From the sequence record HE978309: a stretch of 64,000 nt of DNA; one strand, given 5' to 3'. The number at the start of each line of letters is the position of its first letter. The stretch's first letter is position 1. The position numbers were made by a program, and so were the translations under genes. The stretch comes from Enterobacteria phage GEC-3S. Under the pieces are notes generated by a model. That model searched no databases and was not told where the DNA came from. It saw only the letters and a program-made list of their open reading frames with translations. This document shows, piece after piece, positions 23,781 through 48,666 of the stretch.

Positions 23781-24257
23781 TTATTTTTCTTGATGCTCGC
23801 GCTCGTACTTTTCGAAATAAAATTCTACTGGCTGATCGTGGATTGAAAGCAAGCCAAAGCGTTTAGCCGCTCGCAATCCCATATTGCGCTGAATGTACTT
23901 CTGGAAGTTCTCGCGTATACACTTACGCCAGTATTCTAAGCCCATACAGCTTTTATAAAGATTGCATTGCACACACGCCGGATTCATGTTATCAAGTATA
24001 TCATGTTCCGGTTTATGCATTCCTACAACCTTATACTTCCACGATCCATCATCATTACGGGCAATTCGTCCATTTTCATCATAGACTACCTTTGAGCGTC
24101 GCAATACTGGTTTGATATGGTCTGCGTGCCAGCGATCCCCTAGTTCCTCGCCACAATAGGCACAACGCCCACCGTATTTCATTTTCAGGATCTGGCGTTG
24201 CTCTTTCTTTGACAATTTTTTAGGTTTAGGGGCTTTCGCCCCTTCATTATCACACAT
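23781..24257 (-). CDS. HNH endonuclease (free-standing, homing-endonuclease-like)
   Basis: 158 aa; CAYCG...HADHIKP...N...ACVQCN HNH motif; start overlaps ligase stop. Confidence 0.65.
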   Translation of the reverse strand: MCDNEGAKAPKPKKLSKKEQRQILKMKYGGRCAYCGEELGDRWHADHIKPVLRRSKVVYDENGRIARNDDGSWKYKVVGMHKPEHDILDNMNPACVQCNLYKSCMGLEYWRKCIRENFQKYIQRNMGLRAAKRFGLLSIHDQPVEFYFEKYEREHQEK

Positions 24258-25752
24258 CGAATACCTCTTTTACTGTATTTGCCGTGGTCTTGTCGTAGCG
24301 AATACGTTTGATGATCGGGAGAAATAAAGAGAACTCCGGTTCATCTTCTTTACGTGATTTGCTGCGAATGTACCCGTTGCATGTCATCTCAATGACTTTT
24401 CCGACCAGGTTATGCCGTTCAGCCCATAACATTTCTCGGTCAAGTTCATTTCGACGATCGAACGGAATTACACGTTCAGTACCATCATCACCTTTTTCGG
24501 TTGTAGTGTCGGTTAATCCCGATCCGGTGTTAGTCATCATTCGTCCGCACGCACTACGGACAGTAAAACCGCCTACCTTATTGGGGTCTTTACTATGCGG
24601 ATATACATCAACAATTTCCGCGTCGAAGTCAATAACTTCTTTAAATTTAACCTGATCTTTACTGCGACGATCTTCAAATACACCATGTAAATTTTTAAGG
24701 ATAATACCTTCTAAGCCCATGTTTACATAGCGATGATATACTTCGCGAGCTTCATCGATATTGTTAACTACGGTATTTTCGATTATCTGAACACGAGGAT
24801 CGTTAAGTTCTTCAACAATCTGTTTTAGTTCTTCGAATCGATCTTTATATTGCTTCGTTGCTTTCTCGTTTCCGTAATACACATCACGGTCGATAACATC
24901 CCAGACAGTGTAAACAATACATTGGGCTTCTTCTTTTGGAATAGTTCCTTTCAGTGATTTGTTGAGGATACCATTTCCGGTCTGACGATCTGCAACAACG
25001 GATTCTTTCACCGCTTCCGCTACTGGCGTTAATGGCATTTCCTCTTCTTCAAATATCCATGACAGAGTACCATCATAAACGCTCTCAACGAAGTTCTGCG
25101 CTGGTGTTTGCGAAAGGGTAGGCATATATACCAATTCGCCATCTAGAACAATTCCACGGCCTCGTAGACGCTCTAAAACCGCAAACAAATCATCAAGCCC
25201 TTGATAGGTATTACCTGAGCGGGTATAGATTGCTAATGTTTCCCCGTCAATATCAGCCATACCACGAGCGCCATCGCTTTTAAGTTGTGCATACGCCGGA
25301 TACTTGATATTAGAAATAGTCTTATCAGAACATGACGATGCAAGGTGGCACGGTTGCTGAGGGATCAGTTTCTTCCATACCTTGTTTGCAGTGGTAGCGG
25401 AACAACCGCATTCCAGGTCACGATTCAGGACCATCATTGCAACTTTAGCATCATCCTCTGACAAGCAAGTCAGAGTATCGGTAACTAGCTGTAATGCTGC
25501 GTTGCCAGTTACTTGACGCGTGGCAAGTTTATTTTTAAAGACCTGTAATGCACCGGATAAAGACAATACAGACGAATAGCGAGATGGTTTATCGTATTTC
25601 TTTACGCCAAACGTAACCTGTTTGCAATATGCCAGATAAAAGCATTCTTTCAGCGTTTCATTGCTCGCGGATTCTTTCAGAATCTTTTCTTTCAGCGATG
25701 TTTTGTCTGTTGCTGCAAGCTGATTAATGATATTAAGAATTGACATTTTCAC
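24250..25752 (-). CDS. 30: ATP-dependent DNA ligase
   Basis: 500 aa; KSDGARG adenylation motif and flanking similarity to T4 gp30. Confidence 0.9.
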   Translation of the reverse strand: MKMSILNIINQLAATDKTSLKEKILKESASNETLKECFYLAYCKQVTFGVKKYDKPSRYSSVLSLSGALQVFKNKLATRQVTGNAALQLVTDTLTCLSEDDAKVAMMVLNRDLECGCSATTANKVWKKLIPQQPCHLASSCSDKTISNIKYPAYAQLKSDGARGMADIDGETLAIYTRSGNTYQGLDDLFAVLERLRGRGIVLDGELVYMPTLSQTPAQNFVESVYDGTLSWIFEEEEMPLTPVAEAVKESVVADRQTGNGILNKSLKGTIPKEEAQCIVYTVWDVIDRDVYYGNEKATKQYKDRFEELKQIVEELNDPRVQIIENTVVNNIDEAREVYHRYVNMGLEGIILKNLHGVFEDRRSKDQVKFKEVIDFDAEIVDVYPHSKDPNKVGGFTVRSACGRMMTNTGSGLTDTTTEKGDDGTERVIPFDRRNELDREMLWAERHNLVGKVIEMTCNGYIRSKSRKEDEPEFSLFLPIIKRIRYDKTTANTVKEVFDV

Positions 25753-26212
25753 CTCGTTTTGTTAAACGTTCACGAATATCATTGAGGATACTACAAAATT
25801 CCGATTCAGTCAATATAGTCTTTAACGGATCTGTTCCACCTATACTATGACGCAATTTCTTATTTCCGGTAGCGAGTAATGCTTTACAAAATTCTGGGTT
25901 ATTCCGTGCCATCGTAACAAATGCCAGATGTACCAGTCTGTAATAATGCTCACTCATTCGATGAATCGGGCGACCCTGAAAATATAGCATGTGATTCTCT
26001 ATCTTTTCAGTCCTTCCGGTTCTTTTTGCTTTGCCACCGTGCATCAAAAAGATTTCTCTTTGTCTCTGGGGGTTCTTGAATCTTAATCCCTGTAAAAATC
26101 CTTCTGTGCTGTTAATATCGCAACCAAATAGACGGAATGGTCTTTTATTGAAATTACTCAATTCACCCGATGGATAAGGTCCACCCGCATAGATATCAAT
26201 TTCATAAGTCAT
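25733..26212 (-). CDS. NADAR (DUF1768, YbiA-like) domain protein
   Basis: 159 aa; IDIYAGG...LSNF...F..G...STEGFLQGLRF...ALLATGNKKL pattern of NADAR proteins. Confidence 0.55.
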   Translation of the reverse strand: MTYEIDIYAGGPYPSGELSNFNKRPFRLFGCDINSTEGFLQGLRFKNPQRQREIFLMHGGKAKRTGRTEKIENHMLYFQGRPIHRMSEHYYRLVHLAFVTMARNNPEFCKALLATGNKKLRHSIGGTDPLKTILTESEFCSILNDIRERLTKRGENVNS

Positions 26213-26366
26213 TGAAACTAATCTCGCTAATCAGAGAGAACGGATCATAATCGTCATTAGGAATATCGATAGTAATCGAATGAGGATTTACCCATACACC
26301 AAACTGGTCTTCTTCGGTGAATACTTCGGTATGGATTTCGTGGATGTTTACATTCATAGTTTTCAT
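26202..26366 (-). CDS. hypothetical small protein (54 aa)
   Basis: sub-60-aa ORF MKTMNVNIHEIHTEVF...; AAGGAA RBS; stop overlaps the NADAR start. Confidence 0.35.
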   Translation of the reverse strand: MKTMNVNIHEIHTEVFTEEDQFGVWVNPHSITIDIPNDDYDPFSLISEISFNDL

Positions 26367-26408
26367 AATAAAATTCCTTAATAATCAATAACTTACAAAA
26401 TCATATAG

Positions 26409-26437
26409 CCAAAATATAGGCGGGATTATTTCCCGCC
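26409..26437 (-). terminator. rho-independent terminator after gene 31
   Basis: hairpin GGCGGGAAAUAAUCCCGCC then UAUAUUUUG. Confidence 0.45.
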
Positions 26438-26449
26438 GTTTAAAAATCA

Positions 26450-26773
26450 TTAACCGTAAACTACCACAATATTCTGTTTGTGCGTTACAGTCCATTTCAG
26501 GTCGATCTCTTCTTCCTTCTTAACGCCGTTAATAACGTCTGGATGAGGAACTTTATTCATCTTTCCGTGTGGCAGTAGAACAGTTTTACCCAGCAATTCT
26601 TTATCTACAGTTTCACCAATATCAATAATCTTACCTACCAGCGGAATCTCGCCCATAGTGCGCTTTTGCTCAATAATGATCCCCATAGAGCTTTTTACTT
26701 CGGTCCCTGCGCTTTCTGCTTTAGCTTCGATAATTACATAATCACCAAGTGCTTTAGGAGTTTTAACGGTCAT
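26450..26773 (-). CDS. 31: gp31 co-chaperonin (GroES-like)
   Basis: 107 aa; LGDYVIIEAKAESAGTEV...NKVPHP... similar to T4 gp31. Confidence 0.8.
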   Translation of the reverse strand: MTVKTPKALGDYVIIEAKAESAGTEVKSSMGIIIEQKRTMGEIPLVGKIIDIGETVDKELLGKTVLLPHGKMNKVPHPDVINGVKKEEEIDLKWTVTHKQNIVVVYG

Positions 26774-26814
26774 AATTTTATTACCTCTTCAAATCAATAC
26801 AGTTTAATGATGAA

Positions 26815-27135
26815 TTATTTATAAATTTCGACGATCTGTGCTGGAGTCAGCCCGTCTACATTAATCAGACTATCAAGCCCAAAACTACGGAAACCTTCAA
26901 CTGCAATTTCATATACGGGCAAAGATGTTTCTGATTCTTTACGCGGTTTTTCTACATTAGGAACTAACCACTTTTCGTATGTTTCAAACGGCATCAGTGC
27001 CGGATCTCGCGTGGCGATCATCTCGCGGACAGTACCATCTTTCTTAGTAAACTGCAAAGAGTGAGTACCGACCGAAAACATTTTCTTTAGTGCTTCACGA
27101 ATTGCGATATTATCAATTTGTTCAGTCATTATCAA
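26815..27135 (-). CDS. hypothetical protein (106 aa)
   Basis: ORF track; between cd and 31. Confidence 0.5.
   Translation of the reverse strand: MIMTEQIDNIAIREALKKMFSVGTHSLQFTKKDGTVREMIATRDPALMPFETYEKWLVPNVEKPRKESETSLPVYEIAVEGFRSFGLDSLINVDGLTPAQIVEIYK
26816..26823 (-). promoter_or_regulatory. T4-type late promoter (TATAAATA on minus strand) upstream of gene 31
   Basis: plus-strand TATTTATA about 43 nt upstream of the gp31 ATG, overlapping the stop region of the preceding ORF. Confidence 0.4.
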
Positions 27136-27628
27136 TACCCTTCAAATCAGTCAATAATGCTTTTGGAATACGCGTAACCGTAATGTCGGCTTTATCCAAA
27201 ATATCAGCCCAATCACGCCCACCATTTCGATCATATGTGTCGCAATAATATAGATGTTTAATTCCACTGTTTGCAATTGCTTTAGCGCAATCTGGACATG
27301 GTGAAGCAGTACACCACATACTAGCGCCTTCAATCGATACACCGCTACGGGCAGCAAACAAAATAGCATTTAATTCAGCGTGGATCTCGTTTTTCTGTGA
27401 CCATGCACTATGCTCTGACCGTTTTTCAGGGATCATTTTACCTTCATCATCCAGCCAACCGCTTTTATGTGCATGACAGCTACAATTTACTTGCCCTGCT
27501 GGAGTTCCATTAAATCCAGTAGAAATGATTCGCCCGTCTTTTTCAATTAGTGCGCCTACCTTCCACGAAACGCATTTAGAGTTCTTTGCGATTAGATAGG
27601 CGATCTGCATGTAAGTTTGTGACAACAT
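27122..27628 (-). CDS. cd: dCMP deaminase
   Basis: 168 aa; HAELNAI and CTASPCPDCAKAI zinc-binding CDA motifs. Confidence 0.9.
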   Translation of the reverse strand: MLSQTYMQIAYLIAKNSKCVSWKVGALIEKDGRIISTGFNGTPAGQVNCSCHAHKSGWLDDEGKMIPEKRSEHSAWSQKNEIHAELNAILFAARSGVSIEGASMWCTASPCPDCAKAIANSGIKHLYYCDTYDRNGGRDWADILDKADITVTRIPKALLTDLKGIDND

Positions 27629-27649
27629 AATATAATCCTCACATATTAA

Positions 27650-27853
27650 TTAACCGTATACGCGAAAGTATTCTACTGATCCGTCGCTATACTGTTTTAC
27701 ATTGAATGTATTCACACCATGATTATTGCTCATAATGACATATACACTACGACGCTCATCGCTAAACGGGTTAACTGGTGCGGGTTCAATTTCAACATTA
27801 AAACCACGTTTAGCAAGTGCTTCGCCTAATTGCTTGAGTTTATCGGTAAACAT
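27650..27853 (-). CDS. hypothetical protein (67 aa)
   Basis: ORF track. Confidence 0.45.
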   Translation of the reverse strand: MFTDKLKQLGEALAKRGFNVEIEPAPVNPFSDERRSVYVIMSNNHGVNTFNVKQYSDGSVEYFRVYG

Positions 27854-28731
27854 TAAAAGTCTCCGTAGTTAACCTGAAAACATTCTACACCAATTGCGCG
27901 GTACATGTCAACCACTTGATCACGGTCATCTACTGCCAACACAACATGATAACGCGGTGCAATTTCAGAGAAGAAAATCTCTTTCTTCACTTCATGGTCA
28001 GGACGACGATCATTAGTTTCACGTTGAAAGTGATCACTAGGTTCAATACCCTGTTCACGCAGCCATTGCAGAGTATCTTCTTCGCAAACATCCTCACGCC
28101 CTGAGCATGTAATGATACGATAACCATTATCACGATACAGTTTAAGCATTTCGATCACTTGCGGACGCGGTTTATCTTCTTTGACCTTTGTCCAGTCAAA
28201 CGGATGACGACCGCCCTTATCCGCTAATGTCCCATCAATATCAAAGATCACTGCTTTCGGCAGCATGGTATTCGGTTTGTATACTTCTTGACCCATATAT
28301 TCCTGCATCAGATAAAATTGGTTGCGCAAATGAGAAAGTGGAATTGCTTTCTCTCCGCGATAGAAATTACGTTTCTTTAGTGTCTCAAATGATTCATTGA
28401 ACACTTGTTCAGTATACACCGCGTTAAATTCTTTTGCAAGTTTTTTGTAGAATACACGATGTTTTTCTTTCAGGTTAGTATCAGAGATAATGATACTTAA
28501 TCCGCGTGATAGAGTCTCACGAGCAATCATTCTCTGAATAGACTCTACCAGCTTTTCTTTTTCCTTAGTATACTTGTATTTCAAATGTGAGTCAACACCA
28601 AACAACATAAGACGAAGGTCATCACGATTCACATTACGATAATTACTAAACCGTTTACATGTCTCCATAGCCCATGTAGTTTTACCGGACCCAGAACAAC
28701 CAACGGTTAAAATCACTTCACATTTCGGCAT
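27853..28731 (-). CDS. pseT: polynucleotide 5'-kinase/3'-phosphatase
   Basis: ORF track 27853..28752; P-loop GCSGSGKTT near N-terminus and HAD motif FDIDGT in C-terminal half. Confidence 0.85.
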   Translation of the reverse strand: MPKCEVILTVGCSGSGKTTWAMETCKRFSNYRNVNRDDLRLMLFGVDSHLKYKYTKEKEKLVESIQRMIARETLSRGLSIIISDTNLKEKHRVFYKKLAKEFNAVYTEQVFNESFETLKKRNFYRGEKAIPLSHLRNQFYLMQEYMGQEVYKPNTMLPKAVIFDIDGTLADKGGRHPFDWTKVKEDKPRPQVIEMLKLYRDNGYRIITCSGREDVCEEDTLQWLREQGIEPSDHFQRETNDRRPDHEVKKEIFFSEIAPRYHVVLAVDDRDQVVDMYRAIGVECFQVNYGDF

Positions 28732-29183
28732 TATTTCTCCTTCGGTTTGCACCGTTCCTCATTAAGTTCTTTGCGATAATAACACATGATCAACTTACTT
28801 TCAAGTGTATATCTCTTAATATCCGCAAGCCAGACTCTGAATTTTTGGGAGTCCTCCCACGACATAGAAACTCTAGGTTTACCGTCTATTGTATCCACTT
28901 TCAGGTCAATGTCAACTTTTTCTATTGGTGCTGGTAGTGGAGGATGTAATTTCGGTTCTTGTGAATAATGGTCCATTGTACACGAAGAAAGCACAAATAC
29001 AATAGGCACAGCGAAGACATGGATTATGGAGGTCTGAAAATTCTTGTGTACTTTCTTAAACATCCAGTGTATCACGAAAATTGAAAACACCATCAGAATA
29101 ATAATGCTTGCACCTATCCACAAATAATCAACCAGATTAAAATTGCTTATCTGCTCTTGCGTAGGCAATATTTCTATGCTCAT
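28731..29183 (-). CDS. o-spanin (outer-membrane lipoprotein), start uncertain
   Basis: lipobox VFVLSSC after a hydrophobic segment, Pro-rich mature region; probable start near 29063 (MFKKVHK...); adjacent to pseT as T4 pseT.2. Confidence 0.55.
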   Translation of the reverse strand: MSIEILPTQEQISNFNLVDYLWIGASIIILMVFSIFVIHWMFKKVHKNFQTSIIHVFAVPIVFVLSSCTMDHYSQEPKLHPPLPAPIEKVDIDLKVDTIDGKPRVSMSWEDSQKFRVWLADIKRYTLESKLIMCYYRKELNEERCKPKEK

Positions 29184-29503
29184 TTAGTAGCCTCCTTTAA
29201 TTCTTCGGTAAACTCCTTAAATGAGTCATTAAGCTGTTTCTCTACCAACTTGGGTTTTTGTGCTACTACATAGCCTCGTGTAGCGTCTTTCATTGCTTTG
29301 TTTTGTTCTTCTGCAAACTTAGTTCTTATTCCGTACATCTCCTTTTGCAGCGAGTCTACAATCTTCATCTTTTCATCTGTCTTTTTCTTATACTCTGTAA
29401 ATTCCTGATTCAGTCGATCTACCTCCTTTTTATTTTCCCACCACATATTTCCACCTACCCCCAGCAACACAGAGATGATAACAATGTATATCAGCTTTGA
29501 CAT
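29180..29503 (-). CDS. i-spanin (N-terminal TM plus coiled coil)
   Basis: ORF track 29180..29554; start MSKLIYIVIISVLLGV with GGGGGT RBS; position as T4 pseT.3. Confidence 0.55.
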   Translation of the reverse strand: MSKLIYIVIISVLLGVGGNMWWENKKEVDRLNQEFTEYKKKTDEKMKIVDSLQKEMYGIRTKFAEEQNKAMKDATRGYVVAQKPKLVEKQLNDSFKEFTEELKEATK

Positions 29504-29513
29504 ATTACCCCCA

Positions 29514-29541
29514 ACGACAAAAGGCGGGGAACTAGCCCCGC
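29514..29541 (-). terminator. rho-independent terminator after rnlA
   Basis: hairpin GCGGGGCUAGUUCCCCGC then CUUUUGUCG. Confidence 0.4.
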
Positions 29542-29547
29542 TTATTA

Positions 29548-30717
29548 TTACCAATCAATCTTATCTGCCGGAATCAGTTTCTTATAATTCCGTAGATAGT
29601 AAGTTTTCATTGAATCCAGAATACGGTCATAATCAAGACCATCGAATGCAATCATCAGACACATGAAAATATATGCTTGTGCATCACCATGTTTACGCGA
29701 TTCGATAGTCGCATTGGATGCATATGTCTTTCTGTCTTCTCCCGCGTGTTCGTTATAAAACTCTGTTGCTGTCGTAAAGGCATTGCGAAGAATAGACCTG
29801 AATGCTTCCTCGAATAACTCGATTCGTTCCAGTGCTTCCGGTTCGCCTTCATATGCAGCACGCAAATCATCGGTTTCGCTTTCTACGACATAGTAGATCA
29901 GGTTATTAGGAAACATCGATGTGTTTTTAATGTTATGCACACCAATATACCATTCACTCTTCACTTTGAACAGTTGACCGTCTTTAGTGCGTGCAACAAT
30001 TCCTTCGATACCTTCTGCGGTCCGAACTTCATCAAGAATATTGCTAAAACGCGCTGAATCAACCTGTAACGCATTTACCAGATGAGGACGTAGGATTGAA
30101 TCGGCGAATAGCATTTGATGCGGTACATACTCTCCTGTGACGTTATGGCGTACATTCAGAAGTGTTAGCGACGGTTCAGAATATTCTACAACAATTCGGT
30201 TGCTGGGTGCTGTATATTCAAAGTTGAAAGTATAATCAGACCCAATATCGGCGATCTTAGCGCGTAGATCCGCATACTTCTCGGAATACAGAAGACCGTT
30301 TGCTCTCTCTGCCTGGCTTGAGTATAAGGCCGCTTTAGACTTCAACTGAACATAGCCGTTATCAATGTATGTGCTTACTAGACTACCGTCCATTTTGTCC
30401 ATGACCATTTCCACATCTTCCGGCTTAAAGCGAGCGCGATCATTCTCACCTAAATTAAAAAACTTCTCCATAGGACGAGATGCAATGCGGACCGGACTAC
30501 CTTTATCGTCAATTTCAAACATGATCCCGCGACACTCTAACGCATCTGGTTTATTCCACATTTCCGGTTTGCTCAAGTACAGATAACTAAAAATGCGCAT
30601 ACGGGTTTGCATCGCCGTAATTTCATCTTTGTAATAGAACGTATCAGATCCGTCACATAGTGCCATCAGATTTTTGAACAATGCTAAAACTTTTTTGTTG
30701 TTTTCTTTTGTTGACAT
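29548..30717 (-). CDS. rnlA: RNA ligase 1
   Basis: 389 aa; LECRGIMFE...VRIASRPMEKFFNL matches T4 gp63/Rnl1. Confidence 0.9.
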   Translation of the reverse strand: MSTKENNKKVLALFKNLMALCDGSDTFYYKDEITAMQTRMRIFSYLYLSKPEMWNKPDALECRGIMFEIDDKGSPVRIASRPMEKFFNLGENDRARFKPEDVEMVMDKMDGSLVSTYIDNGYVQLKSKAALYSSQAERANGLLYSEKYADLRAKIADIGSDYTFNFEYTAPSNRIVVEYSEPSLTLLNVRHNVTGEYVPHQMLFADSILRPHLVNALQVDSARFSNILDEVRTAEGIEGIVARTKDGQLFKVKSEWYIGVHNIKNTSMFPNNLIYYVVESETDDLRAAYEGEPEALERIELFEEAFRSILRNAFTTATEFYNEHAGEDRKTYASNATIESRKHGDAQAYIFMCLMIAFDGLDYDRILDSMKTYYLRNYKKLIPADKIDW

Positions 30718-34631: not shown

Positions 34632-34659
34632 AATAAAATCCTCACTTGTTTTTGATGGT

Positions 34660-34701
34660 TGAATTATAGCGGGGATTTCTCCCCGCGTCAACACTTATTT
34701 T
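34660..34701 (-). promoter_or_regulatory. promoter with palindromic spacer, just downstream of nrdA
   Basis: TTGACG, spacer CGGGGAGAAATCCCCGC, TATAAT. Confidence 0.5.
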
Positions 34702-36943
34702 ACAGCTTGCAAGATGAGCACTCGCTAGAGTCTTCCGTACCATCTGCACCGTCGCGAACGTTCGCATAATACAGGGTTTTCAGACCGTAATATTGAGCAA
34801 ACAACATATCATCTAAAACATCAGCAATATCGACTTTACCCGTCTTATAAGTGCTTGGGTCGTAGGATGTATTGGAACTAATCGCCTGGTCTACAAACTT
34901 CTGCATGATCGCTGCCAGTGTCAGATAAGGCTTGTTACCTTTCTTGATCAGTGTCCAAAGCAGGTCAATAACATCAGCATTATTCTCTACGTTCGGAATA
35001 ACCTGATTAAATTGCCCTTCTTTCGATCCTTTAACCGATACAATCCCGCGAGGCGGTTCAATACCGTTTGTGCTGTTAGACACCTGAGAAGACGACTCAC
35101 AAGGCATCAGCGCCGAAAGCGTACTGTTACGAATGCCATATTTTTTCAGGTCTTCGCGCAGTTCTTCCCAATCCATCTCATACACCGGATCAACCAGTTC
35201 ATCTACTGTCTTTTTGTACCAGTCGATAGGAAGTTCACCGCGACCATAGCGTGTTTCGTGCATCAGTTCGCAAGCACCCTTCTCTTTTGCTAGCTGCACA
35301 CTAGCTTTAATCAGAGCATATTGCAAGCGTTCAAACGTTTTATGCGTAAACTCGTTAGCGTCTTCATATGTGAAGAAATTATCTGCTAGATATGATGCAA
35401 AGTTAGTCACACCAACACCCAGAGAGCGACGTTTTTTGGCTGTCAGAGCTTGTTCTACAGGATAATCCTGGTAATCTAACAGGTTGTCAAGTGCACGCAC
35501 CATAACCATAGCAATGCGTTCTACTTCTTCCATATTTTCGATATCAAAGTTTCCTAAAACATATGCTGCCAAAGTGCATAGGCTGATCTCTGAATCATCA
35601 CGACCCATCGGTTTTGTAGGCAGAGCAATTTCACAACACAGGTTGGATTGTTTAATCGGTGCTACATTACGAATAAACGCCCCGTGATTGTTCATGTTGT
35701 CTGTGAACGTTGGGTAGATTCGACCAGTGTTAAAACGTTCAATTGCCACCGCTAAAAACAGGTCTTCGGCTTTAACACGAGTTTTACGAACACTCGGATC
35801 TTTTTCCAGTTTTTCGTAAAGCTGGCGGAAACCTTCCTCATCTCGGAAGTATAGATCCCACAACAAGCCACCTGCAACATCTGGACTAAACAGAGTAATG
35901 TAATCCCGTTTAAGGAATCGCTCTACCATCAGGTTATTAATCTGTACGCCGTAGTCAAGATGGCGAATGCGGTTATCTTCCACGCCCTTATTGTTCTTTA
36001 ACACAATCAGACTTTCAAACTCTAAATGCCACATTGGGTAATAGAGAGTCGCCGCCCCGCCACGAATACCGCCTTGTGAGCATGACTTAACGGCAGTCTG
36101 AAAATGTTTCCAGAATGGGATAACGCCAGTATGACGAACTTCACCATGCCCGATCTTAGATCCTTCCGCGCGAATCATGCCAGCGTTGATACCGATACCC
36201 GCACGCTTGCTAATATACTTGATGATTGCATTTGCTGTTTCGTTGATGCCCTGCAATGAGTCATCACTTTCAATCACCACACACGAACTAAATTGGCGTG
36301 TTGGGGTACGCACACCAGCCATAATCGGAGTAGGCAGAGAGATTTGCTTATTCGAAACAGCATTATAAAAATCAATCACATGTTCAAGTCGATTTTCTGT
36401 CTCTTCTTGATGCAAGCACATACCGATCAGCATATACGCAAATTGCGGTGTTTCGATGATTTTCTTAGTGCTGCGATCCTGAACAAGATATTTCTCTTTT
36501 AACTGCATCGCACCAGCATAGGTCATTTTAAAATCAAGTTTATGGTCGATGAATTTCTCCAGATATTCCACTTCTTCACGGGAATACTTTTGCAGAATTT
36601 CACGATCATATTTTCCGGTTGCAATATTACGCTCAATATGGCTGTAAAAATCAATCGGTTGGAATTGACCGTATACTGATTTGCGAAGCGCGAACATTGC
36701 AAGGTTACTTGCTACATATTGATAATCGGGTGTTTCTACAGTAATGTTATCTGCTGCGACCTTAATCAATACTTTCTGGATATCATTGGTAGACATACCT
36801 TCTGTCAGAAGTGGTTCAACCATATCAAACAATTCATATGGATCAACGTTATGACCTTCGGCTGCCGCTTCCAGAATTTTCATTACTTTTTCTTTTTCAA
36901 ACGGAACAGTCAGACCGGAAGACTTAACAACATTTTTAATCAT
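34700..36943 (-). CDS. nrdA: ribonucleotide reductase large subunit
   Basis: 747 aa; class Ia RNR alpha features, synteny with nrdB. Confidence 0.9.
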   Translation of the reverse strand: MIKNVVKSSGLTVPFEKEKVMKILEAAAEGHNVDPYELFDMVEPLLTEGMSTNDIQKVLIKVAADNITVETPDYQYVASNLAMFALRKSVYGQFQPIDFYSHIERNIATGKYDREILQKYSREEVEYLEKFIDHKLDFKMTYAGAMQLKEKYLVQDRSTKKIIETPQFAYMLIGMCLHQEETENRLEHVIDFYNAVSNKQISLPTPIMAGVRTPTRQFSSCVVIESDDSLQGINETANAIIKYISKRAGIGINAGMIRAEGSKIGHGEVRHTGVIPFWKHFQTAVKSCSQGGIRGGAATLYYPMWHLEFESLIVLKNNKGVEDNRIRHLDYGVQINNLMVERFLKRDYITLFSPDVAGGLLWDLYFRDEEGFRQLYEKLEKDPSVRKTRVKAEDLFLAVAIERFNTGRIYPTFTDNMNNHGAFIRNVAPIKQSNLCCEIALPTKPMGRDDSEISLCTLAAYVLGNFDIENMEEVERIAMVMVRALDNLLDYQDYPVEQALTAKKRRSLGVGVTNFASYLADNFFTYEDANEFTHKTFERLQYALIKASVQLAKEKGACELMHETRYGRGELPIDWYKKTVDELVDPVYEMDWEELREDLKKYGIRNSTLSALMPCESSSQVSNSTNGIEPPRGIVSVKGSKEGQFNQVIPNVENNADVIDLLWTLIKKGNKPYLTLAAIMQKFVDQAISSNTSYDPSTYKTGKVDIADVLDDMLFAQYYGLKTLYYANVRDGADGTEDSSECSSCKL

Positions 36944-37011
36944 ATTACCTCACTTCATATTTTAGCAGGAACAAGTTTATCCTCCATATTGGGGGCTTTC
37001 GCCCCCTTTGT

Positions 37012-38235
37012 TTATACTGCCATTTGAGCGGTGATCGCTGGATGGCTTTGATAGTTGTGAATTTTAAAATCTTTCGGAGTCTTTGTCAATACCTCATCTA
37101 AAGATTTAAATTCCGGCAACTCAATTGTTGGTTTATCAAACGGAACACGGCTTAACTGTTCCATAACTTGATCAAAATGGTTTTTGTAAATGTGGCAATC
37201 CCCACACTGATAAACCAGTTCGCCAACTTCTAACCCGCAAATCTTCGCGATGATATGCGTTAACAGTGCATAGCTCGCTACGTTGAACGGATTCCCTAAA
37301 AAGAGATCATTCGAACGCATGAAAAATAAACAACTCAATTTGTTGTCGTTGGAAACATAAAACTGTACCATCGGATGACATACACCTAACACAGCATTAT
37401 GCGTTTCCTGTACGTTCCATGAATCAATGATAATACGACGACTATACGGATCATTCTTGATCATGTCAATAACTTTTTGTAACTGGTCTTCCCAAATCTT
37501 CGGGCGATAGACATATTCTTCATCGTCTTTAGTGCTTGATGTGTCTACGTCCATACTAACAAACATCGTGGTATCCGGTGCTATAATATCCCCACCCAGA
37601 TAATCACTATCAAGCAGATAACCGAAATAACCATCATCTACCCATTCCTGGAATCCCCACAAGCAATATGCATCATTAACAAAATTAGATTGAGTCTTCC
37701 AGTGGTCTGCTACCAGAATATAATCAAACTCTTCATAACGCATACCACGCCAGATAGCACATAAACGGTCTTCTGTGTCATTGGTTGGCGTAAAGTCTTC
37801 TACCCACGGGTGCTTAAATGTATGTGTATATTTGCTCTTAACGCGCTTAATTTTGATTTCACCATGTGGATGAATCGGTTTGCGTCGCCACGCCATACCA
37901 TACATATTGCCGACATTATAACCATTGAATCGCAAGGGATTCTTTTCTTTCATATCAAGACAGTTGCCGCGCCAAATATCAAAGGCTTCCTCGTCAAACT
38001 TGCCGCGTGTAATTTCCTGTAAGCGACGGCGGTCAAGTGATCCCTCCATAAACCATAGCAATTCGCCAATCACAGAGGCTGTAGCCATCTTTTTAGTGGT
38101 CAGTAATGGGAAACCCTTGCTTAAATCAATTCGCATCTCTGCGCCGAATTTAGAGAGCGTACCTACCCCCGTGCGGTCTTCACGAGGACAGCCATTATCA
38201 AGAACATCACGCAACAGTTTCAAATATTCTTTCAT
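37012..38235 (-). CDS. td: thymidylate synthase with a large internal insertion
   Basis: 407 aa; conserved DRTGVGT, catalytic CHPMVQFYV, SNDLFLGNPFNVASYALL; roughly 120 extra residues between YGMAWRR and DPYSRRII; no intron. Confidence 0.85.
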   Translation of the reverse strand: MKEYLKLLRDVLDNGCPREDRTGVGTLSKFGAEMRIDLSKGFPLLTTKKMATASVIGELLWFMEGSLDRRRLQEITRGKFDEEAFDIWRGNCLDMKEKNPLRFNGYNVGNMYGMAWRRKPIHPHGEIKIKRVKSKYTHTFKHPWVEDFTPTNDTEDRLCAIWRGMRYEEFDYILVADHWKTQSNFVNDAYCLWGFQEWVDDGYFGYLLDSDYLGGDIIAPDTTMFVSMDVDTSSTKDDEEYVYRPKIWEDQLQKVIDMIKNDPYSRRIIIDSWNVQETHNAVLGVCHPMVQFYVSNDNKLSCLFFMRSNDLFLGNPFNVASYALLTHIIAKICGLEVGELVYQCGDCHIYKNHFDQVMEQLSRVPFDKPTIELPEFKSLDEVLTKTPKDFKIHNYQSHPAITAQMAV

Positions 38236-41804: not shown

Positions 41805-41858
41805 TATTCCTTCTTTTGATTAATTTACTAGACTATTATACAGATTTAAATTTACTTG

Positions 41859-42539: not shown

Positions 42540-42548
42540 ACATACCCC

Positions 42549-42803: not shown

Positions 42804-43071
42804 TGAACACCCGATCATAGAGTTCTACCGCTTCATCGCGTTCTGCTTCGAAGGTTTCGCGCTGTTGCTGGTGATACAGTTTAAACAGAATGCCCCACAT
42901 TTTACCATCTACACCTAATTCTTCTTTAGCACGCTGTTTGATCTCTTTGATCTTATCGCCATATGCTTCTTGAATGGTTTTCTGATCGCTGGCTTCTTTA
43001 ATCAGTTGTGCCAGGGTATTTCCGTGCGCTGCTTCGTCAAATACTACTTTTTCTTTTTTCTGTTCAGTCAT
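42796..43071 (-). CDS. small protein in the DsbA (dsDNA-binding) position
   Basis: 91 aa, size and position as T4 dsbA; no motif confirmation. Confidence 0.4.
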   Translation of the reverse strand: MTEQKKEKVVFDEAAHGNTLAQLIKEASDQKTIQEAYGDKIKEIKQRAKEELGVDGKMWGILFKLYHQQQRETFEAERDEAVELYDRVFNA

Positions 43072-43075
43072 AATA

Positions 43076-43672
43076 TTAACCCTCTTTCGTCATTAATTGA
43101 AAACCACGTTCAGCTTTTGAAATTTCGCTAGGACTTAAATCGTCACCCACATATTCTAGCATCATTTCTCGGATAATGTCAAGTGCTTTTTCATCGCCTG
43201 ATTTTAACTCAAACTCAAGTTCATAGTGAGCATCTCCCATTACTTCGCCGACTTTGCAATAATAGAAAGTGTCTCTGCACATTTCCACTATACCACAACC
43301 CATATCTAGAGTCAATGACTTGCGGTATGTCATTACTTGAAGTAAAGGAACGATAAGGTCGGAGTTTACGCCTAGACTATCAACATAGTGATAGAAATCA
43401 TCCATTGTTGAAAAAGTAATTTCTTCTCGGTTGAATAGTCCAGATTCACCATCACCTATTTTGACCATGATCAATGATCTATTAACGTCAAGTCGTGCAT
43501 AAATTCCTTTTTGACGTAGAGCATGATCTTTGGTATCATAATAAAATTCGTGTTTTATAATGTTATCTCGGTCTACGAGATTGTACCCGTCATACATTGC
43601 TACCCACAAATCACAGATTGTTTCGACGCCAATTTGTGAGTGTGCATAGTATTTTAATTCAAGTTCTTTCAT
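43076..43672 (-). CDS. CYTH-domain (triphosphate tunnel metalloenzyme-like) protein
   Basis: 198 aa; N-terminal ELELKYY (ExExK), EFYYDTKDHALRQKGIYARLD, YELEFELK. Confidence 0.5.
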   Translation of the reverse strand: MKELELKYYAHSQIGVETICDLWVAMYDGYNLVDRDNIIKHEFYYDTKDHALRQKGIYARLDVNRSLIMVKIGDGESGLFNREEITFSTMDDFYHYVDSLGVNSDLIVPLLQVMTYRKSLTLDMGCGIVEMCRDTFYYCKVGEVMGDAHYELEFELKSGDEKALDIIREMMLEYVGDDLSPSEISKAERGFQLMTKEG

Positions 43673-43682
43673 GTGTCAACCC

Positions 43683-44630
43683 TTAGAACTCACCAATTTT
43701 CTGCAACATTTTAACTAACGCATTTGTTACAAAATAGTTATAAATTTTACCGCGTGGTGCTGGTTTAGATTTTTCCCATGACTCCAGAATCTGAGTCTTA
43801 ATATTGTCTGGGATGTAATCGAAATCAATAAGTTCGCGGTTTTCGTCAAAGCGTCGTGCTTCTTCCTCTGTCATTAAAGACTTTGGATCTTCGGCATCGA
43901 AAATTTGCTCTAACCATTTGGTTGCAACCGGTTTAGCTCGTTCCCCTTCCAGTCGAGAGATAATGAAATCACTACGACACTTGACAGAAGCCACACCGTC
44001 TTTTGCGTCACCCTTAACACATTTTACCATAAGGTCTTTGTAAGGGCTACCATATTTGCATTTCTTCCATGCTTTCTGTACTGGCGCCCACTGTTTCACG
44101 TTTTTGTATTTGTGCAACTGCGTGTAGTCACCATCACCGGAGTTGATCAGCACCTGGCGACCTTCTACAGAAAACTTTTTAGTTAATACAGCGATTATAT
44201 CATCCGCTTCAACTTTGTCAACCTTAATAACGTGATAAGGCATATTCTCTTTAAACTCTTCGGTGATCTTATTGATCGCAGCAAAGATCATCTCCCAATC
44301 ACGCGGATCTGCGTCTCGCTTTTCCTTACGGTTGCGTTTATAGTAAGGGGCGATATCACGTCGCCAGTAACCTTTGCTTGAATCAAAAGCAAGTACCGTA
44401 ATAGGGTATTGCTCTTTGAATTTTGTCATATTATAACGCATGGTGTCAAGAATAAGATGACGGATCATGCCTTCATTAATAGGATCTTCCGGTTTAAATG
44501 TATGCGAGATAGTAGCAATCATAAGCTGTGACATATCAATCAAATGCACACCTTCCGGCAGTTTATCTTCTGGATCATCGAAGAAATCATTAAGTGTAGC
44601 GGTAGTTTTTGTAAACGGGTTATATGTCAT
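43683..44630 (-). CDS. rnh: RNase H (5'-3' exonuclease / flap endonuclease)
   Basis: 315 aa; SKGYWRRDIAPYYKRNR, INSGDGDYTQLHKY, DFDYIPDNI match T4 RNase H. Confidence 0.9.
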   Translation of the reverse strand: MTYNPFTKTTATLNDFFDDPEDKLPEGVHLIDMSQLMIATISHTFKPEDPINEGMIRHLILDTMRYNMTKFKEQYPITVLAFDSSKGYWRRDIAPYYKRNRKEKRDADPRDWEMIFAAINKITEEFKENMPYHVIKVDKVEADDIIAVLTKKFSVEGRQVLINSGDGDYTQLHKYKNVKQWAPVQKAWKKCKYGSPYKDLMVKCVKGDAKDGVASVKCRSDFIISRLEGERAKPVATKWLEQIFDAEDPKSLMTEEEARRFDENRELIDFDYIPDNIKTQILESWEKSKPAPRGKIYNYFVTNALVKMLQKIGEF

Positions 44631-44632
44631 AA

Positions 44633-44818
44633 TTAAGTTCTCTCCACTCTCACAACAACATATTCGCCAAACGAGTTAGATACTTCACGATCATAACCGT
44701 ACTTCTCCATAACTCGCAGAATTGCATTGTTTAATTCGGCGCGGAAATAATTGTAATCCTTATCAGGGATTCTGTCAACTACCCATTTTGCACCGTCTGA
44801 CAAATCAACTTTAACCAT
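44633..44818 (-). CDS. hypothetical protein (61 aa)
   Basis: ORF track; coupled to rnh. Confidence 0.45.
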   Translation of the reverse strand: MVKVDLSDGAKWVVDRIPDKDYNYFRAELNNAILRVMEKYGYDREVSNSFGEYVVVRVERT

Positions 44819-44856
44819 AATATATCATCCTCTTTTGTTTCTATCAAGCCTTATTT

Positions 44857-44864
44857 TATAAATA
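44857..44864 (+). promoter_or_regulatory. T4-type late promoter (TATAAATA) for gene 34
   Basis: exact TATAAATA about 29 nt upstream of the gp34 ATG; AAAGGAGA RBS. Confidence 0.6.
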
Positions 44865-44892
44865 TGATCATACTATAAAAGGAGACCCAATA

Positions 44893-47800
44893 ATGGCAGA
44901 TTTTTCTCAACATTTCAAGGCCACATTTGGCTTTGACGCTGGTAATGAAAAGGTCGTCAATGTAGCATTGGCTGATAAGAATGTCAACACCGATGCGGTC
45001 AACGTTGAATTTTTCAATTACCATAATGGTATTACTCAGTATGACACAACTCGCGGTTATGATCAATACGGAACTACAATCTATCAAAACCGTCCGTATT
45101 ATGCAAAAGAAGATATCACAAAACCAGCAGGTGATTTTGACCCGACTAAATGGCAAGCACTGCGCACGGACCCACGTTGGGATTATATTGCAGCAACTTC
45201 CGGTGATACTCCTTTACAGTCTGGTGATTATATCGCAGCAGATGGTCAATTTGCAAACTTGACTTTCTCTATGCCAACTAAACCAGCAGAGGGAGACACT
45301 ATAACAGTAAAAGATATCGGTGGCAAGTGTGGTGTTAACGAATTATCGTTCTTGAGTTCAGGACATGAGTTTTACCATAACGGTAATGTGTATAACCGAA
45401 AATGGTATTGCACTACCCCGTATGCAATGAACTATTTCATCTTTGTTCGTAATCGTTGGCATGTTTATCAGACAGGAACAGAGCCACGCGGTGTGTACGC
45501 ACAGCCAGCGATTGATGCTATTCAAATGCAGAATGGTGATCAGGTCTTTCGTCGTAGTTCGTTGGGTAATATTACCTTAGTGCTTCCTAAGTTTGCCAAC
45601 AATGGCGACATGATCCAGACTACAGACCTTGACGGATTAACCGCAACCAACCACGTTACGGTTAAAGTTCATGAGCACGCAGAAGAACAATCAATTGGCA
45701 CGTCCGGTCTAAAAGAGATTATCGGTAAGCGTAGCGGTCATGGTGTATTCATCTTTGACAAGACGGAAAACTTATGGCGTTTGTGGGATGGTGATCAGTC
45801 TGTTCGTCTTAAACCGATCATCGATGACACTCGCTTGCAACCTAATAGCTATGTTGCCGTATTTGGTGATCGTGATGTTACTCTGACGCTGCCGACCAAT
45901 GTCGAGCCGGGTGATCGTATTCAAGTTTCTATGCAGTATATGCACGGAAACCAGAATTGCCGTATTATCACCGCCACAGAGGATACAAAAATCCTTATGC
46001 AGAAAAACATGGTTCAGTTTCCTAAGCGTAGCGAGTACCCATTCAATGGGACCGATACATGGACGGGAGTTTCTGAATTGTCTTTCAACGCTGCAAATGA
46101 TTATGTACCTTATCTGGAGTTCTCTTATTCAGAAGGTGATGATGGTAAGAAATACTGGTTGGTGGCACATGCTCACCCGATTGTAGAACGAGTAGATCCG
46201 ACTCGTAAAGACCGTGTTGGTGTAATTGCACTGGCTACCCAGGATGAAACAAACAAAAACCATGAAGATAATCCTAGCGACGAAGTTGCGGTGACTCCAA
46301 AGGTTCTGGCTAATAAAACAGCCAACGAAACTCGACGCGGTATTGCTCGCATTGCGACTCAAGCGGAAACGCATCAAGATACTGGTTCTAACTTCCTGGA
46401 TGATGTTATCGTTACGCCTAAAAAGTTAAATGACTGTGTTGCTACCGAAGCCCGTCGTGGTGTGATGGAAATTGCAACCCAGCACGAAACCAATGAAGGT
46501 TTAGACGATACCCGCGCTATTACTCCTAAGAAATTAGAAGAACGTCGCGCTTCCGAAGATCTCGCTGGTATTGCTGAAATTGTTCAGGTTGGCGGTAGTG
46601 CTGCCGCTCGACGTGGCGAAGCTGGTACAGGGATCTATAACATCAATGACCATGCTAAAATTGTTACGCCAAAAAACATCAACGAAGTCAAGGCGACCGA
46701 AACTTCCCGTGGTGTTGGCTATCTGGCAACTGACGCGGAAGTGCAAGGGGCTACAGAATCAACCCCGCAAGATGCTTTACTAATCACTACTCGCACGCTA
46801 ACTAAACGTACTGCTACCGAATCGCGCACTGGTATCGCTGAAATTGCAACTCAGGAAGAAACAAACTTAGGTCAAAGTGATAACCATATCATCACGCCTA
46901 AAAAGCTGCATACTCGCCGCGCAACGGAAACTTTACATGGTTTAGCAGAAATTGCAACTCAACCGGAGTTTGACGCAGGTCTTGACGATGCTCGCATTTC
47001 TACCCCATTGAAGATTAAAACCTTCTTTGAGAATGCACAGCGTTTGAAAGTAGATCCGACTCAGGGGCTTAACCTTACTGGTGATTTGTGGCAAGGTATC
47101 ATGATCAGCGGTCTGGATGCAACCGAAGACACAAAAGGTGTCGCTAAAGTTGCTACTACTCAGCTTACGGATGCTGGTCAAGATGATACTACAATCATCA
47201 CGCCTAAAAAGCTGCAAGGCAAAAAAGCCACCGAAGGTAAAGAAGGTATTATCCGCGTTGGTACTCAAGCCGAAACCGTGGCTGGTACACTGGCTAATGT
47301 AGCAATTTCTCCGAAGAACTTCAAATATGTTGTTCAGACAGAGGATACATGGAAAGCAACCGAAGCGCGTCGTGGATTCTTGAAAGTTGCTACTCAGGAA
47401 AACTGTTTTGTTGGTGACAATCTGCAAGGTTCTACTCAAGAACTAGGAAACTACCAGCATGACGGAATTGCTGTTACCCCGAAAGGATTAAACTATGCAC
47501 TTGCTAATTTCTTACCTAAGATGGCAACCGCTCAGAATAGTTTGAAATTGGGTAACGTAGAGGCCGCTAAATGGGCGCGTAGAGACATTGACCAGACCAT
47601 AGAGAGCAATTACACGTTTAATAAAAACGTTAACGTGAAGGGCGATTTAGGGTGCTTAAAATCTGGTTCCTTTGAAACTCTTTCTGTGACTAAGAACTCT
47701 ACTGATGTTCCGAGTAATGGTCATCTGGTGTTGGGTAAGCGTGGAGTTGACGGTCACACCGGAATTACTCTGCATGGTACAACCGCATCGGAAGGCATGA

Positions 47801-48633
47801 AAAACTCGTGGTCTATTATCGTTGGTGGTACTGGAACAGCGCAAGTTGTTGATAGTGATGCTATCGCTTTCGGTCAAATCAATGATGGTGGAGTCGTCGA
47901 GCATTACGCCTTTGCTGTGGAACACAATGGCGACGCGACAGCATATAGAGACTTTATTGCAGGTCGTAACCTGTATGCGAAACAAGGCGGTTTATACATT
48001 GTTGACCAGTCTAATCCGGCAATGACTCGTTCCCAAGATGGTATGCTGAATATCGGTCACGGTGGAAGTGTTAACATCAAGGCAGGTTCTCAAAAGTTAA
48101 CTACAGAGATCGCCGGACAGAAATATCAGATCGTACACGCAGGAAACGCCGACGAAGTTCTTAACCGTCAGTTTGTTAAGAATGCTGGCGATACAATGGT
48201 CGGTAAGCTGACTATGGATAATGCGCCTATTGTTTCTGTTAAGCATGAAGCTAGCGCGGCAACCGCTCCGGCAATCGGTAACATCGGTTTCTGGAATATG
48301 CGAGTTACTACCCAGAACATCAAAGAAACTTATCCAGAGAAGAAAAACGGTACTCTGATGCAATGGGGTACTGACGCGGACGGGCTTACCCAGCTTTGGT
48401 CCCCTGATGGTACTCATAAACATTATATCCGTTCCGGTACTGGTGGTCAATGGACCGCATGGGGTGAAATTTACACCAAACAGAATAAGCCTACCGCTCA
48501 GGAAATCGGGGCAGTAGTTGCAGAAGGTGGTTTAATGAACTCTATGACGGTTCGTGATTGGATCAAAGTTGGTAATGTTAAAATCATCGCCAATAATCTG
48601 ACTCGTACCGTAGACTTTATCTGGGAAGACTAA
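44893..48633 (+). CDS. 34: gp34 long tail fibre proximal subunit
   Basis: 1246 aa; N-terminus similar to T4 gp34; synteny after rnh. Confidence 0.9.
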   Translation: MADFSQHFKATFGFDAGNEKVVNVALADKNVNTDAVNVEFFNYHNGITQYDTTRGYDQYGTTIYQNRPYYAKEDITKPAGDFDPTKWQALRTDPRWDYIAATSGDTPLQSGDYIAADGQFANLTFSMPTKPAEGDTITVKDIGGKCGVNELSFLSSGHEFYHNGNVYNRKWYCTTPYAMNYFIFVRNRWHVYQTGTEPRGVYAQPAIDAIQMQNGDQVFRRSSLGNITLVLPKFANNGDMIQTTDLDGLTATNHVTVKVHEHAEEQSIGTSGLKEIIGKRSGHGVFIFDKTENLWRLWDGDQSVRLKPIIDDTRLQPNSYVAVFGDRDVTLTLPTNVEPGDRIQVSMQYMHGNQNCRIITATEDTKILMQKNMVQFPKRSEYPFNGTDTWTGVSELSFNAANDYVPYLEFSYSEGDDGKKYWLVAHAHPIVERVDPTRKDRVGVIALATQDETNKNHEDNPSDEVAVTPKVLANKTANETRRGIARIATQAETHQDTGSNFLDDVIVTPKKLNDCVATEARRGVMEIATQHETNEGLDDTRAITPKKLEERRASEDLAGIAEIVQVGGSAAARRGEAGTGIYNINDHAKIVTPKNINEVKATETSRGVGYLATDAEVQGATESTPQDALLITTRTLTKRTATESRTGIAEIATQEETNLGQSDNHIITPKKLHTRRATETLHGLAEIATQPEFDAGLDDARISTPLKIKTFFENAQRLKVDPTQGLNLTGDLWQGIMISGLDATEDTKGVAKVATTQLTDAGQDDTTIITPKKLQGKKATEGKEGIIRVGTQAETVAGTLANVAISPKNFKYVVQTEDTWKATEARRGFLKVATQENCFVGDNLQGSTQELGNYQHDGIAVTPKGLNYALANFLPKMATAQNSLKLGNVEAAKWARRDIDQTIESNYTFNKNVNVKGDLGCLKSGSFETLSVTKNSTDVPSNGHLVLGKRGVDGHTGITLHGTTASEGMKNSWSIIVGGTGTAQVVDSDAIAFGQINDGGVVEHYAFAVEHNGDATAYRDFIAGRNLYAKQGGLYIVDQSNPAMTRSQDGMLNIGHGGSVNIKAGSQKLTTEIAGQKYQIVHAGNADEVLNRQFVKNAGDTMVGKLTMDNAPIVSVKHEASAATAPAIGNIGFWNMRVTTQNIKETYPEKKNGTLMQWGTDADGLTQLWSPDGTHKHYIRSGTGGQWTAWGEIYTKQNKPTAQEIGAVVAEGGLMNSMTVRDWIKVGNVKIIANNLTRTVDFIWED

Positions 48634-48666
48634 TTAAAGGGGGCGAAAGCCCCCTATGGGGTTATT

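Follow-up and report, generated by a model that had tools for sequence, protein, structure and literature searches.

Three GAAA-capped hairpins without a U-tract lie at gene ends of the Krischvirus GEC-3S

The 64,000-nucleotide stretch of Enterobacteria phage GEC-3S DNA analyzed here (sequence record HE978309, hereafter the window) contains three copies of a short GC-rich hairpin capped by a GAAA loop. They are located between the gp30 DNA ligase gene and an HNH endonuclease open reading frame (ORF), between td and nrdA, and between genes 34 and 35. The window represents a Krischvirus, a T4-type coliphage resembling RB49, phi1, and JSE; many records match it at 97-99% identity, and the annotated relatives at this level of identity bear out the gene names that an initial annotation had given to the three junctions. 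The 14-mer GGGGCGAAAGCCCC occurs exactly three times in the window, each time on the sense strand, and was matched in 0 of 100 dinucleotide-preserving shuffles, even with one mismatch allowed (0 expected). The three copies described by the initial annotation are thus real, and the position given for copy 3 was exact, whereas those given for copy 1 (24231-24246) and copy 2 (36979-36994, 12 nt off) required correction to 24228-24243 and 36991-37006, both on the minus strand. A complete RB49 assembly likewise has exactly three copies of the element, one at each of these junctions. Because it has only those three, the window contains the whole set of copies.

Copy 1 occupies 24229-24242 on the minus strand, or 24228-24243 when an additional A-U pair is included, and reads AGGGGC-GAAA-GCCCCU, with a GGGGC stem and a predicted stability of -11.6 kcal/mol. 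It begins 6 nt past the TGA stop codon of the gp30 gene (24250..25746, minus strand), which overlaps the start codon of a free-standing HNH endonuclease ORF of 158 aa (23781..24257, minus strand) in the sequence ATGTGTGA. Within this overlapping ORF, the hairpin encodes codons 5-10 (E-G-A-K-A-P). As the Pfam HNH domain (E=5e-6) begins at residue 32, copy 1 sits in the N-terminal leader of the endonuclease. All 7 Krischvirus genomes read carry copy 1 unchanged. Insertions in ECD7 and Delraymugoa were considered as events at the hairpin site and rejected, as both are found downstream of the HNH gene, leaving 40 nt of identical sequence on each side of the hairpin.

Copy 2 lies at 36991-37006 on the minus strand and reads GGGGGC-GAAA-GCCCCC (GGGGGCGAAAGCCCCC; -13.3 kcal/mol). 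It is found 5 nt past the stop codon of td (thymidylate synthase; 37012..38235, minus strand), whose product ends in M-A-V-stop, and 47 nt ahead of the ATG of nrdA (34700..36943, minus strand). In the 47-nt spacer (36944..36990, minus strand), GGAGGAUAAAC resembles the Shine-Dalgarno region of nrdA.1, which encodes a DUF4326 protein, and the end of the spacer, ...AUAUGAAGUGAGGUAAUAUG, matches the 3′ end of nrdA.1 in Makalu_003, E26, and LF73P4. The spacer is therefore probably a relic of the Shine-Dalgarno region and 3′ end of a deleted nrdA.1. A GGAG located 7 nt past copy 2 was considered as a site for RegB, but the relic nrdA.1 Shine-Dalgarno sequence explains it better. The td ORF itself encodes 407 aa, compared with 284 aa in Pseudotevenvirus and 286 aa in T4, and no intron is evident. 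Pfam Thymidylat_synt matches it in two stretches, and this split implies an internal insertion of ~120 aa. In addition, a near-consensus sigma-70 promoter-like sequence (TTGACA-17-TAAAAT, 11/12) is present at 37061-37089 on the minus strand, in the 3′ end of td. Copy 2 lies ~55 nt further downstream and would be part of the leader of any transcript initiated at this site.

Copy 3 is located at 48639-48654 on the plus strand (48638-48655 including an A-U pair) and reads AGGGGGC-GAAA-GCCCCCU. It falls between gene 34, which encodes the proximal subunit of the long tail fibre (44893..48633, plus strand), and gene 35, which encodes the hinge connector (48667..49806, plus strand), 4-5 nt past the gp34 stop and 11-12 nt ahead of the gp35 ATG. 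A late promoter (TATAAATA) precedes gene 34 at 44857-44864, and a terminator-like hairpin with a T-run follows gene 35 at 49817-49839. No late promoter of this sequence is found between genes 34 and 35. As the late promoters precede only genes 34 and 36 and the T-run hairpin follows gene 35, copy 3 is internal to a late 34-35 operon. A near-consensus antisense promoter-like site (TTGACC-17-TATAAT) was observed at 48422-48450 on the minus strand, within the 3′ part of gene 34; in T4, oriG is inside gene 34 and its primer RNA runs opposite to the gene. In Shigella phage Sf20, ~450 nt separate the end of the annotated gene 34 from gene 35, and the locus exceeds that of the window by ~330 bp, pointing to a duplication, insertion, or frameshift inside gene 34 rather than at the hairpin. 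The extra ~330 bp was rejected as an insertion at the hairpin site, because it lies within gene 34 and the junction of the gp34 end, hairpin, and gp35 is unchanged.

The three copies share the same predicted RNA structure. In each, the GAAA loop and the flanking genes are on the same strand, in agreement with the proposal that the hairpins form on the transcribed strand, and each presents a GNRA tetraloop in the form C(GAAA)G with a Watson-Crick closing pair. The stems consist of 5-7 bp of G and C, and the hairpin alone is predicted at -10 to -13.3 kcal/mol. When 100-120 nt of native context were folded, as had been recommended to check the initial annotation, the hairpin was retained in both the minimum free energy and centroid structures. 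A scan of the whole window at Rfam gathering scores returned 0 family matches.

As GC-rich, short-loop stem-loops on the sense strand downstream of a gene, the copies have the first half of an intrinsic terminator. However, the sequences 3′ of the three hairpins (UAAACCUAAAAAA, AAUAUGGAGGAU, and UAUGGGGUUAUU) contain no U-rich tract. While only two of the copies had been described as lacking a U-run, it is missing from the sense strand of all three, which strengthens the view that they are not classical terminators: without the U-tract they cannot be counted as canonical intrinsic terminators. A consensus scan called no sense-strand terminator at any of the three copies; it called copy 2 on the antisense strand only. 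Moreover, neither sigma-70 -35/-10 boxes (TTGAC, TATAAT) nor a late promoter flanks any of the three. In public records, ARNOLD-based annotations of G37-3 and G2248 list copies 2 and 3 as terminators, and the records of Makalu_003 and Makalu_001 give the hairpin 3′ of td as a terminator that is antisense to this gene. These putative-terminator labels on copies 2 and 3 are doubtful because the U-tract is missing. For annotation, this means that several GenBank records say "terminator," one on the wrong strand, where efficient termination is unsupported by the sequence.

Gene-end hairpins are common in this genome. Approximately 40 stable hairpin loci lie in the 8% of the window that is non-coding, where hairpins of <= -10 kcal/mol are ~5-fold denser than in coding DNA, and nearly all of the intergenic ones begin 1-12 nt past a stop codon. 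They fall into hairpins flanked by TTGAC and TATAAT, of the type described below as promoter-early stem-loops (PeSLs); hairpins with a T-run, some of them bidirectional; and a few bare hairpins, including the three copies. Nine intergenic tetraloop hairpins have an unambiguous sense strand, and in all nine the GNRA or UUCG loop is on that strand (antisense, 0). This accords with the initial remark that many other terminators in the window use UUCG or GAAA loops.

The same hairpin is also widespread beyond this phage group. An exact scan of IMG/VR with GGGGGCGAAAGCCCCC found at least 120 loci in unrelated viral contigs. Among the matches listed, to which the following counts of contexts, gaps, T-runs, and strands refer, 117 distinct contexts were classified by whether an ORF of at least 70 codons ends no more than 40 nt upstream. 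GAAA lies on the same strand only as such an ORF in 78 contexts and on the opposite strand only in 8, while ORFs end on both strands in 17 and on neither strand in 14. The hairpin follows the stop codon at a median distance of ~8 nt, and a T-run accompanies only 43 of 121 occurrences of GGGGGCGAAAGCCCCC. Of two loop-permuted controls, AAGA was found at 37 loci, rarer than GAAA, whereas AGAA is frequent too because its complement, UUCU, serves as the loop on the sense strand (48 versus 9); as the AGAA count is also a lower bound, the comparison yields no GAAA-specific enrichment figure. GGGGGCGAAAGCCCCC is, then, a generic sense-RNA gene-end hairpin of phages.

Comparison of the td site across genera reveals that the structure is kept while its sequence and surroundings change. 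In Krischvirus type A, to which the window belongs, GGGGGC-GAAA-GCCCCC is followed by AAUAUGG...; the last pair is broken in ECD7 (GGGGGCGAAAGCCCCG), and the G and C runs are longer in KFS-EC, ELT4, and RB49. In type B (LF73P4, E26, SSG23, Makalu), the hairpin is (T)GCGGGGA-GAAA or GGAA-TCCCCGC(A), followed by AGGAG and nrdA.1. In Pseudotevenvirus (HMGUkp1, Miller, Margaery, and others), GGGGCGAAAGCCCC is followed by TTTCTTAAC, giving a UUUCUU tail, and in Slopekvirus KP27 the hairpin is GGGGC-TTCG-GTCCC with the same U-tract, TTTCTTAAC. Thus all variants keep a GAAA, GGAA, or UUCG loop. Across nine aligned td-site variants, 90% of cells form standard pairs, compared with at most 60% when the partners are slid, and the covariation score is 0.385 versus at most 0.089 when slid. 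As only about two lineages contribute, this covariation amounts to one replacement or a few events. The type B stem is identical to that of a PeSL-type stem-loop after nrdA in the window (34669..34686, minus strand), which reads GCGGGGA-GAAA-UCCCCGC between TTGACG and TATAAT. When the window is compared with HMGUkp1, 32 nt ending in the hairpin (ATGGCAGTATAAACAAAGGGGGCGAAAGCCCC) stand out as an island of 100% identity, whereas nrdA is only 66% identical and td DNA similarity is undetectable; part of this island is the conserved Td C-terminus M-A-V-stop. Among 80 T4-like loci of IMG/VR, the hairpin upstream of nrdA was found only in the two Krischvirus contigs, the others having unrelated hairpins or none.

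The type B nrdA.1 encodes a 100-105 aa protein with a DUF4326 domain (E=7.5e-23), and T4 has nrdA.1 at the same position. Its presence or absence between td and nrdA is polymorphic within Krischvirus and begins immediately 3′ of the hairpin. From these sequences, the td copy looks like a degenerate terminator, of which the sister genera keep both the hairpin and UUUCUU. In the simplest history, the U-tract of an ancestral td terminator would have disappeared in Krischvirus as nrdA.1 was acquired or deleted immediately downstream, while the hairpin stayed under selection. The td site would then be an example of terminator decay to a U-less hairpin that is still selected, with the stem replaced or covarying and GAAA exchanged with UUCG.

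Conservation at the other two sites is restricted to the genus. By blastn, copies 1 and 3 are found in all 57 Krischvirus records and nowhere else, and no compensatory substitutions were seen at either copy within Krischvirus in the genomes read. There, copy 3 varies only in the length of its G-run and C-run, which could also be sequencing error. A related observation is that the arms of copies 2 and 3 are polymorphic in length in six records (5-8 G, 5-6 C), always with a stem of at least 5 bp; ELT4 carries the arm variant CCCCCACCCCCC. This run-length polymorphism is homopolymer slippage or sequencing error.

Taken together, the orientation bias (9:0 in the window, and 78:8 among the IMG/VR matches listed), the conservation, and the covariation of the stem support the view that the copies act at the RNA level on the sense strand. 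Beyond this, we consider it probable, though well short of certain, that they are gene-end hairpins of sense mRNA that serve as 3′ exonuclease barriers or weak attenuators and thereby set the expression of the upstream gene relative to the downstream one. Each copy corresponds to the stem-loop half of an intrinsic terminator minus its U-tract, which RNA polymerase would mostly read through. After endonucleolytic cleavage or distal termination, 3′-to-5′ exonucleases would stall at the hairpin, perhaps with a weak pause or attenuation added, so that the message of the upstream cistron would outlast that of the downstream one. Ligase would be expected to exceed the HNH endonuclease in amount, and gp34, with three per fibre, to exceed gp35, with one per fibre; td would be uncoupled from nrdA.

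Several points weigh against this proposal. A 5-6 bp stem with a stability of -10 to -13 kcal/mol poses no more than a moderate obstacle, and RNase R is able to unwind such stems. Because the stop codon is so close, a terminating ribosome must also melt the hairpin. In T4, no hairpin was found after td (td/nrdA.2) or after gene 30 (30/alt.1). Similarly, none is present at the 34/35 junction of T4 (gap of 8 nt), RB43 (6 nt), or a Slopekvirus (overlap), and this absence makes the hairpin dispensable for the conserved operon design. Finally, real termination is possible even without a U-run, since the stem-loop of a PeSL acted like the rrnB T1 terminator (PMC2839356) and the PeSL-type stem-loops of the window also have no U-run.

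This last point leads to the best surviving alternative, namely that the copies are genuine but leaky terminators or attenuators, each releasing some of the polymerase and lowering transcription of the HNH gene, nrdA, and gene 35. The td hairpins of Pseudotevenvirus and Slopekvirus, with their UUUCUU tail, are annotated terminators, and the ARNOLD-based calls in G37-3 and G2248 extend this label to copies 2 and 3. However, intrinsic termination in E. coli needs a U-tract for efficient release, and no copy has one on its sense strand. In addition, neither of the essential genes nrdA and gene 35 has a promoter between its start codon and the hairpin, the promoter-like site inside td being upstream of the hairpin. 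Partial termination has experimental precedents: the PeSL stem-loop behaved as a strong terminator in a lacZ fusion (PMC2839356), and the weak terminator internal to T4 mobE stops ~30% of transcripts (PMC2988022). On balance, leaky termination is possible but rather unlikely.

A different kind of explanation is that the hairpin, together with the preceding stop codon and the following Shine-Dalgarno-like sequence, is a promoter-less DNA linker of the PeSL type, that is, a homology patch at which cassettes are inserted, deleted, or copied. The clearest case for this is phage 011D4 (MT478991), in which an 800-bp N6_N4 DNA methylase gene, annotated as two overlapping and possibly frameshifted ORFs, lies between td and nrdA (positions 100-934 of the stretch read). 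No close relative of this methylase was found in a collection of 50,697 phage records. The gene is flanked by a 35-nt direct repeat, TAA(A)CAAAGGGGG(G)CGAAAGCCCCCA(T/A)TATG(A/G)AGGA, comprising a stop codon, the hairpin, and a Shine-Dalgarno-like tail. The boundary of nrdA.1 presence or absence immediately 3′ of the hairpin and the restriction of between-genera homology to the 32-nt island ending in it point in the same direction, as does copy 3, which is a Krischvirus-only insertion of ~25 nt where the T4 and RB43 gaps are 6-8 nt. In addition, both copy 2 and copy 3 contain AAAGGGGGCGAAAGCCCCC and then TATGG(A)GG, a resemblance that may hint at copying or may just be the Shine-Dalgarno sequence of the next gene. 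Shuffling mediated by PeSLs is, moreover, documented in this phage group (PMC2839356, PMC4122927). However, the flanked insertion in 011D4 is the sole clear example, copies 1 and 3 have no indel polymorphism in 57 genomes, and other insertions, such as an HNH gene beside nrdB in G5211, lie away from the hairpins. The 16-mer is also so common in unrelated viruses that convergence suffices. We therefore regard a linker role as unlikely and put it forward tentatively; it would be compatible with a role in RNA. The td site suggests that short hairpin linkers, beyond full PeSLs, can bound gene gain and loss in the core regions of T4-type phages.

A bolder version of this idea is that the 30-35 nt module of stop codon, A-rich spacer, GGGGGCGAAAGCCCCC, and TATG-purine-rich Shine-Dalgarno sequence is a portable, promoter-less counterpart of the PeSL, copied by recombination and docking foreign cassettes within the core-gene blocks of pseudo-T-even phages. 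If true, it would account for the Krischvirus-only 34/35 hairpin, the repeats around the 011D4 methylase, and the 32-nt cross-genus island, but we consider it doubtful. Since the hairpin is generic among viruses, convergence alone can explain three identical copies. The main reason for the identity of the copies is that phages in general reuse GGGGGC-GAAA-GCCCCC as a generic optimum, and recombination may in addition have transferred the ~30 nt stop-hairpin-Shine-Dalgarno linker from one locus to another.

Copy 1 invites an explanation of its own, in which the hairpin, at +15 to +30 of the ORF, mainly limits translation of the HNH endonuclease and so keeps a potentially toxic nuclease low. The ATGTGTGA overlap is consistent with such damping, as is the location of the hairpin in codons 5-10, before the HNH domain begins at residue 32, and T4 homing endonucleases are restrained by overlapping starts, internal terminators, and hairpins (PMC2988022). 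However, this explanation covers copy 1 only and leaves copies 2 and 3 unexplained, and it seems improbable as the main role of the element.

Terminators for antisense transcripts, in which the opposite strand reads the hairpin and then a T-run, are very improbable: although the plus strand of copy 2 reads GGGGGCUUUCGCCCCC-UUUGUUUAU, the sole orientation called by the consensus scan, the opposite strand of copy 3 carries UUUAAUUAG, and the Makalu records place the td-site terminator on the antisense strand, copy 1 has no antisense T-run and copy 3 only a weak one, the GNRA loop is on the sense strand in 3 of 3 copies and by 78:8 among the matches listed from unrelated viruses, the sister genera carry the U-tract on the sense side, and the 23-44 kb block is all transcribed on the minus strand, so that there is nothing obvious to stop. 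A role as an RNase III substrate was rejected because the stems are far too short.

Several other hairpins of the window are worth recording. A PeSL-type array occupies 16250-23800 on the minus strand, with elements at 16525-16558, 18658-18691, 18905-18936, 22179-22213, 23343-23375, and 23738-23770, and a further element at 34658-34692. A GGGGATC-N3/4-GATCCCC stem is used in it at least five times. In variants at 16274, 20380, 21937, 31816, and 58419, the -10 box lies within the loop. Between convergent genes, strong bidirectional terminator-like hairpins are found at 4927-4945, 12501-12527, and 55315-55342, with predicted energies down to -22 kcal/mol; the hairpin at 55315 has a GAAA loop on the minus strand. 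A further bare hairpin, AGGCCGC-UUUGC-GCGGCCU, at 62423-62441 on the minus strand, lies between two minus-strand genes, directly upstream of a Shine-Dalgarno sequence, and has neither a U-run nor promoter boxes. The PeSL-type array agrees with the description by Arbiol et al. 2010 (PMC2839356).

The practical consequences of these assignments are modest, and nothing here would surprise a T4 specialist; for engineering, the hairpin is a candidate compact intercistronic insulator or stabiliser. Among known systems, the exonuclease barrier that we favour resembles the repetitive extragenic palindromic (REP) elements of malEFG, which Newbury et al. 1987 reportedly found to block 3′ exonucleases and to produce differential expression within the operon. 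Likewise, Dar and Sorek 2018 are said to have described trimmed 3′ ends at U-less hairpins. Like REP-type stabilisers, the copies are stable U-less hairpins between cistrons whose upstream product is expected in excess, as for gp34 over gp35. However, they are much shorter and have no protein-binding motif, and their stabilising role is put forward by analogy.

Hairpins of the form C(UUCG)G have reportedly been described in T4 intercistronic regions by Tuerk et al. 1988. T4 terminators consist of a GC stem, a 4-nt loop, and poly(U) (PMC2988022). The copies share with them the short GC stem, the extra-stable 4-nt loop, and the sense-strand position after a gene, and the copy-2 homologues of Pseudotevenvirus (GAAA) and Slopekvirus (UUCG) look like canonical T4-type terminators. 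Unlike these, the three copies have no poly(U), and two of them lie within operons, directly before an essential downstream gene. For copy 1, the closest parallels are T4 mobE and segF, which contain terminators within the 5′ end of their ORFs (PMC2988022). The mobE AUG overlaps the nrdA stop codon, its terminator has a weak poly(U), and ~30% termination was measured (PMC2988022). Similarly, and alone among the three, copy 1 lies in the first codons of an HNH-family ORF, and the start codon of this ORF overlaps the stop codon of an essential upstream gene (ATGTGTGA). In contrast to the mobE terminator, copy 1 is followed by no U-run, even a weak one.

The nearest relatives within the same phage group are the PeSLs. 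Such units of a polyG/polyC stem-loop and an early promoter abound in RB49 and phi1, where they mediate the shuffling of cassettes (Arbiol et al. 2010, PMC2839356; Comeau et al. 2014, PMC4122927), and a PeSL stem-loop placed before lacZ cut expression as much as the rrnB T1 terminator did (PMC2839356). The copies resemble them in being a reused sequence that forms a polyG/polyC stem-loop, which in copies 2 and 3 is placed between a stop codon and the Shine-Dalgarno sequence and start of the next gene, and in copy 1 inside an ORF. The td copy goes further in coinciding with indel junctions and a repeat-flanked insertion; its 011D4 repeats match the cassette-integration signature of the PeSL papers, but without a promoter. 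Among 57 genomes, neither copy 1 nor copy 3 shows repeats of this kind around an indel or cassette. Unlike PeSLs, none of the copies adjoins -35/-10 boxes, and they lie in conserved core-gene blocks rather than in hyperplastic regions, copy 3 being in a late operon. Overall, gene-end hairpins are a known feature class of this phage group, comprising PeSLs and tetraloop terminators, and the three copies are ordinary members of it.

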